DNA from: Escherichia coli
Lineage (GTDB): Bacteria > Pseudomonadota > Gammaproteobacteria > Enterobacterales > Enterobacteriaceae
DNA length: 64,000 nucleotides
Strand: one strand, 5' to 3'
Assembly (NCBI RefSeq): GCF_048403405.1
Contig: NZ_CP183129.1
Shown: piece after piece, positions 22,858 through 53,482 of the stretch
Layout of the letters: the number at the start of each line of letters is the position of its first letter
Numbering within the stretch: the first letter of the stretch is position 1
Notes under the pieces: generated by a model
What the model saw: only the letters and a program-made list of their open reading frames with translations
The model's database searches: none
What the model was told of the DNA's origin: nothing
Translations under genes and position numbers: made by a program

Positions 22858-22888
22858 CAAGAGCCAGCGCCCGCTGGCTCTTTTTTTA
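22858..22888 (+). terminator. asnS rho-independent terminator
   Basis: GAGCCAGCG-cc-CGCTGGCTC hairpin followed by TTTTTTT. Confidence 0.65.
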
Positions 22889-25910: not shown

Positions 25911-25940
25911 TGAAGCCCGCTTAAAAAGCGGGCTTTTTTA
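25911..25940. terminator. Terminator between convergent aspC and gloC
   Basis: AAGCCCGC-ttaaaaa-GCGGGCTT hairpin followed by TTTTTT. Confidence 0.65.
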
Positions 25941-29417: not shown

Positions 29418-29455
29418 TTTTCGGAAAAAGAAAAGGCGGCATTGCTGCCGCCTTC
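29418..29455 (-). terminator. mukB rho-independent terminator
   Basis: GGCGGCA-ttgc-TGCCGCC hairpin 4 nt downstream of the mukB stop, followed on the minus strand by CTTTTCTTTTTCC. Confidence 0.65.
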
Positions 29456-48359: not shown

Positions 48360-49043
48360 TTATGCGAGAGCCAATTTCTGGCGCGCGTATTGTAGCGCTT
48401 TTTCAATCACTTGCTCAATGCTTAAGGTGGTGGAATCCAACACTAAAGCATCGGCTGCCGGAACCAGTGGCGCTACCGCTCGGTTACGATCGCGGTCGTC
48501 GCGTTCTTTGATCTCGGCCAAAAGGCGCTCAAAGTTAACACTAAAGCCCTTCTCCTGCAACTGTAGCATGCGGCGATGCGCACGTTCTTCCGAGGAGGCG
48601 TCAAGGAAAATTTTCACTGGCGCATCAGGGAATACCACCGTTCCCATATCGCGGCCATCGGCAATCAAGCCTGGTAATTCGCGAAACGCGCGTTGGCGAC
48701 GCAATAATGCTTCACGAACGCGTGGGAATGCCGCGACTTGTGAAGCAGCATTCGCCACTTCCTGAGTACGAATTTCGCCGCTGACATCTTCCCCTTCGAG
48801 GATCACTTCCAGATTGCCATTGGTCGACACAAAACGTACATCCAGATGGGATGCCAGCGGCACGAGCGCATCTTCCGATGCAACATCAACATGGTGATGT
48901 AATGCCGCCAGTGCCAGTACGCGATAAATTGCACCCGAGTCCAGCAGATGCCATTGCAACGCTTCCGCCATAGCCTTACACAAGGTGCCTTTCCCTGCAC
49001 CGCTTGGGCCATCAATGGTAATAACCGGGGCAATTGCCGTCAT
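48360..49043 (-). CDS. cmk: Cytidylate kinase
   Basis: 227 aa; P-loop GPSGAGKGT. Confidence 0.95.
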
Positions 49044-49215
49044 CTTTATCTCCTTAAAACAGGCGTACCGTTAACATAACCGCGCGCATTATACGCGCCG
49101 ACGCCCCAAATCGTTAACGTTGTGTGCAAAAACCAGTTTTGTCTGTATTCAGATGGGGATTTATTGCGCAATTATAGCGGGCTGGCAGAAGACCAGCCCG
49201 AAAGATGACAATGAT

Positions 49216-49980
49216 TTACTTACCAGAGGCGATACGATCACGGATGTGTTGCGCACGCTCTGTTGATGGTGGGTGAGAGTCAAACATGGACTGGGTACGA
49301 CCGCCATCCAGGCTGGCCAATTTTTCAAAGCTGCCAACCAGCCCCTGGGTGCTGATGCCACGTTTCTTCAACAGATCAAAGGAGAAATCATCTGCTTCGG
49401 ACTCTTTATCGCGGGAGTATTTAGCATTGATCGCGCCTTCTGCGATATCACCTAATTGTGAGCGAGAAAGCTGGGAAGCCACACCGCTGGTAGCGGAAAT
49501 CGCATCACGTGCGGCAACGATCGCATAAGAAGCTTTCATTTCAGCCAGCGAGTGACCCAACGCGACGTGGCCCAGTTCATGACCCAGAACGCCTTCAATT
49601 TCGTTGTCGTTCATCATGTCCATCAGGCCACTGTAGACACGAACACAGCCGTTCGCCATCGCCCATGCGTTGACGTCGCTGGTCATATAAACCTTATAGT
49701 TGACCGGCGTGCCATTAATATTGTTACCCAATGCTTTGGCGATTTTTGCCAGACGTTTACCGTACTTGCTGGATTTACTTGCGACTTTATTGCCGCTGTC
49801 CATTTCGACACAGCCCTGATTGGCAATCGCTTTTGCATCAGCATCGCTTAACGTTGCTGCTTTATAGGCATTTAAACCTGAGCTGATAGCCATATTGGTA
49901 TCAATACCGTGGGTATTTTGACACCCTGTCAGTAATGCTGCAGAGGCCGCAATCGCCAGCAGTAATTTAGTATTCTTCAT
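49216..49980 (-). CDS. ycaL: M48-family metalloprotease lipoprotein YcaL
   Basis: 254 aa from MKNTKLLLAIAASAALLTGC (lipobox); HELGH zinc motif; internal Met of track ORF 49216..50004. Confidence 0.85.
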   Translation of the reverse strand: MKNTKLLLAIAASAALLTGCQNTHGIDTNMAISSGLNAYKAATLSDADAKAIANQGCVEMDSGNKVASKSSKYGKRLAKIAKALGNNINGTPVNYKVYMTSDVNAWAMANGCVRVYSGLMDMMNDNEIEGVLGHELGHVALGHSLAEMKASYAIVAARDAISATSGVASQLSRSQLGDIAEGAINAKYSRDKESEADDFSFDLLKKRGISTQGLVGSFEKLASLDGGRTQSMFDSHPPSTERAQHIRDRIASGK

Positions 49981-50148
49981 GTGAATCATCCGTTGATTAA
50001 TCATATATAAATATTATGTATCAACAACTTACATTGACAAGCGACGCTACCATTAATCAAAATGACTCACAAGGTCCGAAAAAAAACGCCGACAATGTGC
50101 CGACGTTTTGATAAAGAAAGATTTGGCTATTTATTGCCCGTTGTTCAT

Positions 50149-51432
50149 TCAGGCTGCCTGGCTAATCCGCGCCAGCTGCTCGAAATAATCCGGAAATGTT
50201 TTGGCCGTACATTTGGGATCAAGAATCGTCACTGGTGTATCTGACAACGCCACCAGCGAGAAACACATCGCCATCCGGTGATCATTGTATGTCGCGATCT
50301 CGGCAAAGTTCAGTTTTTCCGGTGGAGTGATACGAATGTAATCGTGCCCCTCTTCTACTTCCGCACCAACTTTACGCAGTTCTGTTGCCATCGCAAACAG
50401 GCGATCGGTCTCTTTAACACGCCAGTTATAGATATTGCGCAGCGTGGTGGTGCCTTTTGCAAATAACGCCGCCGTGGCAATGGTCATCGCCGCATCGGGA
50501 ATATGGTTCATATCCATATCAATAGCGTTCAGTTCACCACGCGTGCAGGAAATATAATCGTCGCCCCAGCAAATAGTCGCGCCCATTTTTTCCAGCACAT
50601 CAGCAAAGCGAATATCACCCTGCATACTGTTGCGTCCAATGCCGGTCACTTTTACAGTGCCGCCTCTGATTGCTGCTGCTGCCAGGAAGTAAGAAGCCGA
50701 AGATGCATCGCCTTCGACCAAATAAGTACCCGGAGACTGATAAGACTGCCCGCCTTTTACGACAAATTGTTGATAGTGCTGATTTTCAATTTCAACACCA
50801 AACGTCTTCATCAGATTGAGTGTGATGTCGATATAAGGTTTAGAAACCAGATCGCCTTTAATACGAATAACCGTATCTTCCGGCGCAAGAGGCGCAGTCA
50901 TTAATAGTGCGGTGAGGAACTGGCTGGAAACGGAGCCATCAACGTCAACGTTGCCGCCAGTAAAGCCGCCCTGTAAACGCAATGGTGGATAATTTTCTTG
51001 TTCCAGGTAAGTGATCTTCGCTCCGCCCAGGCGCAGCGCATCCACCAGATGACCAATCGGGCGCTCTTTCATACGCGGCTCACCAGTCAGCACAATATCA
51101 TTGCTACCCAGACAAAGAGCTGCCGCCAGCGGGCGCATTGCCGTTCCGGCGTTTCCGAGGAACAACTCCAGGGCACCTTCTGCGTGTAATGGACCGCCGT
51201 TACCGATAATTTCGCAACGCGTACGATCAGCTGAAAGCGTATAGCTTACCCCTAACGCTGTTAATGCATTCAGCATATGGCGCACGTCATCGCTATCCAG
51301 CAGATTGGTTAATACTGTTTTGCCGTGTGCTAATGCCGCCAGCAATAAAGCGCGGTTAGAAACGCTCTTGGAACCGGGCAGATTAATAGTGCCATCGACA
51401 CGAGCGATGGGTTGTAACGTCAGGGATTCCAT
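50149..51432 (-). CDS. aroA: 3-phosphoshikimate 1-carboxyvinyltransferase (EPSP synthase)
   Basis: 427 aa from [35 protein letters not shown]. Confidence 0.96.
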
Positions 51433-51451
51433 GAACTCAACTCTCTACAAC

Positions 51452-51484
51452 AGAAATAAAAACCCCACAGGCTGGCTGTGGGGA
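51452..51484 (-). terminator. Intercistronic terminator-like hairpin between serC and aroA
   Basis: Minus strand reads CCCCACAG-ccagc-CTGTGGGG then TTTTTATTTC within the 70-nt serC-aroA spacer. Confidence 0.55.
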
Positions 51485-51502
51485 TTATGCAAAATTTCGA
51501 CA

Positions 51503-52591
51503 TTAGCCGTGACGGCGTTCGAACTCAATCATGAAGTCTGTCAGCGCTTTAACGCCTTCCAGTGGCATGGCGTTATAAATGGACGCGCGCATTCCGCCGA
51601 CCACACGGTGACCTTTCAGTGCATGAAGGCCAGCAGCAAAAGACTCTTCAAGGAACAATTTGTCAAGCGCACTGTCCGCCAACTGGAACGGCACGTTCAT
51701 CCGCGAACGGTTAGCTTTCGCCACGTCATTGCGGTAGAAATCGCTGTTATCAATCACCCCATACAGCAGTTCTGCTTTTTGCTGATTGATTTTATCCATT
51801 GCAGCTACACCGCCGTTCGCTTTCAGCCATTTAAAGACCAGACCAGACAGATACCAGGCAAATGTCGGCGGCGTGTTAAACATGGAGTCGTTATCGTTGA
51901 GAATGGAATAATCCAGAATCGACGGACACGCGATATTCGCTTTGCCCAGCAAATCTTCACGAACGATGACGATTGTCAGGCCAGCCGGGCCGATATTTTT
52001 CTGCGCGCCAGCGTAAATTACACCATAACGGCTGACGTCAATCGGACGGGAAAGAATGGTTGAAGAGAAGTCGGCGGCGACCACCACATCTTTGCCGAAG
52101 TCTGGCGTTTCGTCGATAGCGATACCGTCGATGGTTTCATTCGGGCAGTAATGCATATAAGCAGCATTATCAGAGAGTTGCCATTCGCGCATTGGCTTAA
52201 CCGCGCGCAGACCATCAACAGTCACTTTGGCGTCGAAGACATTAGGCGTGCAATATTTTTTCGCTTCTTTAATGGCACTTGCCGCCCAGTAACCGGCATC
52301 AACATAATCTGCGGTGGTTTTATCACCGAGAATATTCAGCGGAACAGCAGCAAACTGACCGCGACCGCCGCCATGGCAGAACAATACCTTGTAGTTGGAG
52401 GGGACATTAAGAAGATCGCGAAAATCCTTCTCGGCTTCCTCTGCAACCTGAATGAACTCTTTGCCACGGTGACTCACTTCCATCACCGACGTACCAAGAC
52501 CGTTCCAGTCGCGCAGTTCCTGTTGAGCCTGTTTAAGCACCTCTGCCGGTAGCATTGCCGGACCAGAACTAAAATTGAAGATTTGAGCCAT
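51503..52591 (-). CDS. serC: Phosphoserine aminotransferase
   Basis: 362 aa from [26 protein letters not shown]. Confidence 0.96.
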
Positions 52592-52789
52592 TTCCCCTCA
52601 CCACGTTGCGTTGCTATTAACCCGCGGTCAATCGATTGCGACCACAGGTAATACATTATTCCTGTGGCTATCGGTTTTATCATTCAGTGACACACATCGC
52701 AATGAGTAAAACCGTTGAGGGCAAAAATGTGGCTTGCATCACACAAAAGAATCTCTTGGATTATTAGCAAAAAGCCGATGTTTTTACTG

Positions 52790-53482
52790 TCACGTCACCC
52801 GTTTTGCCCGACTTGCCTTCGTCCATTCTGGATTTGCACAGCGCGGACATAATTGTTTTTCCCCCGCGTTCATATGAATGATTTCACTGCAACGAATGCA
52901 GGCATAGTCCGCCGACTCGGGTACCACTTTGTAACGCTGAGTACAGTCACTGGGTAAAATAAGTAAGCCCGGTTTCACCTTGTCATCTTCAAAGAAATAG
53001 ACACTGATTTGCCCGTTGGTTTCGAGAATCGCCAGACGTACTTGCCCCAACTGCTCTACACCGCGCAATCGTAGCTCCATAAAGAACTCAAATTCCGTCA
53101 TGTTGGAGTTATTGAGTTTCGACCAGGCCAGCTCGCCATCTTCAATAATGACAACCGGCTTACCTTCCAGAAGATCTTCCAGTTTTTCACTGTGTGCCAT
53201 CAACCACATTACCAGGCGGTATAACAACGCCAGAGTAATAAAGACGATAAGTACCGGGACCATCGGCACATCATCATAAAACGCCACATCTCCCGCCGCT
53301 GATCCCAGCGTCAGAATGATTAACACTTCAAAAAGCGACATCTGCCGCACACCGCGTCTTCCGGTCATTTTGAGGAACAAAAAAACCAGTACAAAGGTAT
53401 AAAGACTACGTAGTGCCACTTCGCCAAGGAAATCAAAAGGCACTTTATCAAATGCCATACGGTGGAGATCAAACGCCTTCAT
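52790..53482 (-). CDS. ycaP: DUF421 inner-membrane protein YcaP
   Basis: 230 aa with N-terminal transmembrane segments; divergent from ycaO. Confidence 0.85.
   Translation of the reverse strand: MKAFDLHRMAFDKVPFDFLGEVALRSLYTFVLVFLFLKMTGRRGVRQMSLFEVLIILTLGSAAGDVAFYDDVPMVPVLIVFITLALLYRLVMWLMAHSEKLEDLLEGKPVVIIEDGELAWSKLNNSNMTEFEFFMELRLRGVEQLGQVRLAILETNGQISVYFFEDDKVKPGLLILPSDCTQRYKVVPESADYACIRCSEIIHMNAGEKQLCPRCANPEWTKASRAKRVT

Follow-up and report, generated by a model that had tools for sequence, protein, structure and literature searches.

In the E. coli window (the whole 64-kb stretch of DNA that was analysed), serC and aroA are both encoded on the minus strand and are separated by an intercistronic spacer of 70 nt (51433..51502). 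The first gene of the operon, serC (51503..52591), encodes a phosphoserine/phosphohydroxythreonine aminotransferase of 362 aa (NF003764, E 2.9e-167; TIGR01364, E 2.1e-154) and ends in a TAA stop codon at 51505..51503; the distal gene, aroA (50149..51432), encodes an EPSP synthase of 427 aa (TIGR01356, E 2.2e-139) and opens with an ATG at 51432..51430. The sole minus-strand promoter-like match that a consensus scan found upstream of the operon is located at 52655..52683 (ATGATA-17-AATAAT; 9/12, a consensus match only), and on the minus strand between 51433 and 52591, which covers serC plus the spacer, the consensus scan found no promoter-like match.

aroA is cotranscribed with serC and dependent on it: where serC is targeted by GcvB, the aroA mRNA level tracks that of serC, and deletion of serC lowers aroA expression (PMC11878033; PMC3010111). 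Across 48360-53482 the gene order on the minus strand is a ycaP-like ORF, serC, aroA, ycaL/loiP and cmk, and the serC...aroA...cmk(-rpsA) synteny, described as the remnant of an ancient supraoperon (PMC1173090), is retained in the window. The ORF at 52790..53482 (230 aa) had no NCBIfam match, and the K-12 gene immediately upstream of serC is annotated as the DUF421 protein YcaP.

A hairpin and U-tract in the serC-aroA spacer

Read on the minus strand, the spacer runs UGUCGAAAUUUUGCAUAAU-CCCCACAG-CCAGC-CUGUGGGG-UUUUUAUUUC-UGUUGUAGAGAGUUGAGUUC and then the AUG of aroA. Its central part is a stem-loop on the transcribed strand (CCCCACAG-CCAGC-CUGUGGGG; 51483..51463) with 8 bp, six of which are GC pairs, and a 5-nt loop. 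The 5′ arm CCCCACAG (51476..51483) begins 19 nt past the serC stop codon and is followed by the loop CCAGC (51471..51475), the 3′ arm CUGUGGGG (51463..51470) and the U-tract UUUUUAUUUC (51453..51462), which is the expected release site. The run UUUUUAUUU starts at the base right after the stem and has 8 U in 9 bases. The folding free energy of the isolated hairpin (ΔG) was −13.4 kcal mol−1, and in 150 nt of native context each pair of the stem had a probability of 0.98-1.0. Further downstream, the aroA Shine-Dalgarno sequence GAGAG (51441..51445, minus strand) is positioned 8 nt before the ATG, with GAGA invariant in the 80-species alignment.

All sequence features of an intrinsic terminator were present, namely a GC-rich stem-loop, an adjoining U-tract, the sense orientation and a position past the stop codon that is clear of the terminating ribosome. 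Transcript 3′ ends would be expected at the U-tract, and that of the terminated serC mRNA is predicted to fall around 51454-51458. The K-12 equivalent of 51453-51458 is at about 958,787-958,790 on the plus strand of NC_000913.3. The sequence-only reading of the window had placed a GC-rich hairpin with a T-run on the transcribed strand, at 51452-51484, between two co-oriented genes 70 nt apart, and on each point it was borne out: the stem is at 51483..51463 and the U-tract at 51462..51453, both genes are on the minus strand with the spacer at 51433..51502, and the coordinates bracket the element with one extra base on each side. A bidirectional terminator was considered separately and rejected, as no gene converges on the site and its 5′ flank is not rich in A.

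The quality of the site was compared with chance expectation by two scans. Under strict criteria (a perfect stem of ≥8 bp, of which ≥6 are GC pairs, a loop of 3-8 nt, and ≥7 T among the 9 bases that follow), four distinct sites were found on both strands of the whole 64-kb window, versus a mean of 0.025 in first-order Markov simulations; the quality of the site is far beyond chance. In 4.5 kb, a permissive terminator scan found 8 sites where 4.8 ± 2.5 would be expected, a count that is not significant alone, with the serC-aroA site being the best of them. The only other strict-quality hairpin sites in the 64 kb, at 22861-22880 (+), 25915-25933 (+) and 29433-29454 (−), are presumably ordinary gene-end terminators.

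Conservation of the element within E. coli

The 351 nt around the site matched 5425 of 5426 complete E. coli genomes, at 100% identity for several chromosomes, with serC and aroA annotated at the matching region. The 31-nt hairpin plus U-tract was identical in 5411 of the 5426, while the flanking 351 nt were merely 95-99% identical to most E. coli genomes. The 31-nt element is single copy, found at a median of one place per genome (maximum two). Hairpin and U-tract of K-12 are base-for-base the same as in the window, and K-12 and the window differ at only three bases, all within the 19 nt that precede the hairpin. Among the serC-aroA junction matches in the E. coli RefSeq set, five were on plasmid-classed records, and a few genomes had two copies.

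Covariation of the hairpin across Enterobacteriaceae

The cross-species sample consisted of the 80 closest species listed by one SerC scan, all of them Enterobacteriaceae, from genera that include Escherichia, Salmonella, Citrobacter, Enterobacter, Klebsiella, Raoultella, Kluyvera, Kosakonia, Lelliottia, Trabulsiella and Mangrovibacter. At all 80 loci aroA is the next gene after serC, with spacers mostly of 66-77 nt, and no two of the 81 spacers, counting that of the window, are identical. In the spacer alignment, which leaves out one locus (L069), the first 15-20 nt past the stop codon are variable and are followed by a conserved hairpin, the T-run and the ribosome-binding region GAGAG..ATG.

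A hairpin was found at the same position in 80 of 80 aligned Enterobacteriaceae species, located in the relatives 12-33 nt past the stop codon (median 17) and a median of 32 nt before the aroA ATG, with a ΔG that ranged from −19.0 to −8.0 kcal mol−1 (median −14.7). For the 8-bp stem, 98.3% of the 640 cells in the 80 spacers form standard pairs, and compensatory double changes were found at five of the eight stem pairs (43 cells): for example, the fifth pair changes from G-C to A-U in 25 species, and the seventh from A-U to G-C or C-G in 11. None of 500 column shuffles matched the observed stem pairing or covariation, and sliding the 3′ partner by 1-3 columns reduced pairing to 42-58%. In an independent run of RNAalifold, the consensus structure predicted for the spacer consisted of the terminator hairpin alone. 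Loops vary freely among the relatives, both in sequence and in length (3-7 nt), and TTTTT directly follows the stem in 61 of the 80 species (the T-run is exactly five in 57). As the stem covaries, the loop is free and the U-tract is conserved, selection acts on the structure together with the U-tract, which is the signature of an intrinsic terminator and not of a mere stabilizing hairpin.

At three loci (L061, L063 and L069) the hairpin is kept and the U-tract is weak or displaced, thus the U-tract is not absolutely needed in every lineage. The locus from the MAG UBA5654 (L069; 3589-3712) has a spacer of 123 nt into which a further hairpin of ~50 nt is inserted; its terminator stem is shortened, and its T-run is shifted by ~7 nt. 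The two LSJC7-like loci (L061 and L063; spacers about 3589-3655) combine a very stable hairpin (−18 to −19 kcal mol−1) with an only weak U-tract. Such natural variants could be used to gauge the amount of termination required.

Several entries in the sample call for comment. One locus (L034; CACSKA010000002.1) is titled Chryseobacterium sp. 18061, yet carries an enterobacterial serC-aroA locus with a SerC 90% identical to that of E. coli and a Citrobacter-like spacer, and probably derives from a mislabelled or contaminated assembly. At two others the aroA frame from the conserved start closes early, after 62 codons (L021) and 103 codons (L070), which suggests frameshifts or assembly errors.

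The hairpin downstream of aroA

A second terminator-like hairpin is located at the end of the operon, after aroA (50079..50109, minus strand; AAAACGUCGGCA-CAU-UGUCGGCGUUUU followed by UUUU). In E. coli this post-aroA terminator is clear, with a 12-bp stem that includes A-U pairs and with eight consecutive U. A simple scan of the 130 nt past aroA, covering the 78 loci with enough flank, detected a hairpin plus T-tract in only 42, and their sequences are heterogeneous. Judged by these scans and alignments, the internal serC-aroA terminator is more uniformly conserved across genera than the one after aroA. A contrast between a 'leaky interrupted U-tract' inside the operon and a 'perfect U8' at its end is true in E. 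coli and does not generalize; it was not relied on because the post-aroA terminators are heterogeneous or undetected in many genera.

Discussion

The element is best read as a constitutive, leaky Rho-independent terminator inside the serC-aroA operon that gives higher expression of serC than of aroA, a reading to which we assign a probability of roughly 0.9. RNA polymerase starting from the serC promoter would transcribe serC, and the nascent RNA, 19 nt past the stop codon, would fold into the 8-bp GC-rich hairpin adjoining UUUUUAUUU. Most polymerases would then release at the U-tract and leave a monocistronic serC mRNA, while a minority would read through, and only their transcripts would carry aroA, which would have no promoter of its own. 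The outcome would be a fixed excess of SerC, serving serine and vitamin B6 synthesis, over AroA of the shikimate pathway from one promoter. The aroA Shine-Dalgarno sequence is used only on read-through transcripts. By its sequence the terminator looks strong, and its leakiness, which cannot be read from the sequence, follows only from the need of aroA for read-through: as aroA expression requires it, the terminator must be partial.

The element is already known and not new. The serC-aroA operon was reportedly established by Duncan & Coggins in 1986 and, in Salmonella, by Hoiseth & Stocker in 1985, and a terminator between the two genes is said to have been described by Duncan & Coggins in 1986 and by Man, Pease & Winkler in 1997. 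By RNase T2 protection, the latter reportedly found single-gene mRNAs to make up 80-90% of serC transcripts, ended likely by Rho-independent termination between serC and aroA, and cotranscripts to end at a second terminator after aroA, which we take to be the window hairpin at 50109..50079. The element in the window is this decades-old Rho-independent terminator, the one between serC and aroA in E. coli K-12. A full-text literature search, with two primary papers beyond its reach, found no paper describing the serC-aroA terminator, and the searchable text of the Adams 2021 supplement gave no match to serC, aroA or the coordinates.

The sequence-only reading had proposed a partial terminator or attenuator that sets the aroA:serC ratio. 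The first half of that proposal stands, on the strand, the terminator features, the covariation, the U-tract and cotranscription, whereas the second, taken as a regulated attenuator, is not supported, as no anti-terminator, leader peptide or aptamer was found. In such an attenuator, read-through would be conditional, under the influence of a factor, a metabolite or a ribosome that completes serC, and aroA would be uncoupled from serC in some conditions; differential control would make sense for two genes in different pathways, and modulation mediated by a protein or an elongation factor is compatible with the evidence. However, there are only 19 poorly conserved nt between the stop codon and the hairpin, which leaves no room for a leader ORF or an aptamer, and the hairpin, which begins 19 nt past the stop codon and 22 nt from the first base of that codon, would be out of reach of a ribosome stopped there. 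Rfam returned no match at E<=1 in 50000-53000, and RNAalifold found no conserved alternative helix or anti-terminator among the 80 species. With the 3′ arm withheld, the 5′ arm in E. coli has a pairing probability of only 0.33 and stays largely unpaired (a weak thermodynamic test), and the 5′-arm pairing seen in some of the other 80 species is not conserved. Regulated attenuation is accordingly considered improbable. It is a similarly long shot that read-through varies with conditions (for example, NusA/NusG, nucleotide pools or growth rate) and that the interrupted U5-A was selected for tunability; if true, the site would be a regulatory valve between serine/B6 and aromatic biosynthesis.

An excess of serC mRNA could also arise after transcription, if full-length RNA were made, its aroA part degraded 3′-to-5′ and serC protected by the hairpin as a stabilizer or decay barrier. 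Any stable 3′ hairpin protects against 3′ exonucleases, and protection of the 3′ ends of terminated transcripts is probably a secondary effect. A decay barrier needs no U-tract, yet 61 of the 80 species have TTTTT adjoining the stem. The element, being single copy, is not a REP/BIME repeat, a candidate that was rejected on this ground; decay as the source of the serC excess is thus very improbable. The practically negligible case of translational control, in which the hairpin lies at the centre of a larger fold, with an outer helix between the 5′ part of the spacer and the aroA Shine-Dalgarno region, draws on such a helix in the minimum-free-energy fold of the E. coli spacer, but this helix is paired in 39.3% of cells across the 80 species versus 98.3% for the terminator stem, is no better than slid controls (43-50%, whole structure), includes three G-U pairs in E. 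coli and was rejected on its cross-species pairing.

A leaky internal terminator would explain how one promoter yields much more SerC than AroA in an operon of mixed function. It bears on strain engineering for shikimate, aromatic amino acids and vitamin B6, and on how the polarity of serC mutations on aroA is read. The comparative data add that compensatory evolution maintains the internal terminator in every Enterobacteriaceae genus sampled. The additions are modest, being the quantitative covariation and the better conservation relative to the post-aroA terminator, and nothing in them is new biologically.

Several known systems share parts of this architecture. Leader-type attenuators (trp, his, pheA and pyrBI) and riboswitch terminators likewise place a hairpin plus U-tract upstream of a biosynthetic gene, but they have a mutually exclusive anti-terminator and a sensor (a leader peptide, an aptamer or a protein site), none of which was found for the serC-aroA element. 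REP/BIME stabilizers such as that of malE-malF are likewise intercistronic hairpins with more of the proximal than of the distal product, yet they are present in many copies, have no U-tract and affect decay, whereas the serC-aroA terminator is a single-copy element whose U-tract is conserved. The classic partial intra-operon terminators of E. coli are the rplL-rpoB attenuator of rplKAJL-rpoBC and the internal terminator of rpsU-dnaG-rpoD, where, by the same logic, an intercistronic intrinsic terminator keeps expression of the distal genes below that of the proximal ones. Both differ in locus and sequence from the serC-aroA element, to which they show no homology, and their read-through is reportedly responsive to factors or conditions. 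Functionally, the serC-aroA element belongs with these partial intra-operon terminators and not with leader-type attenuators or riboswitches.
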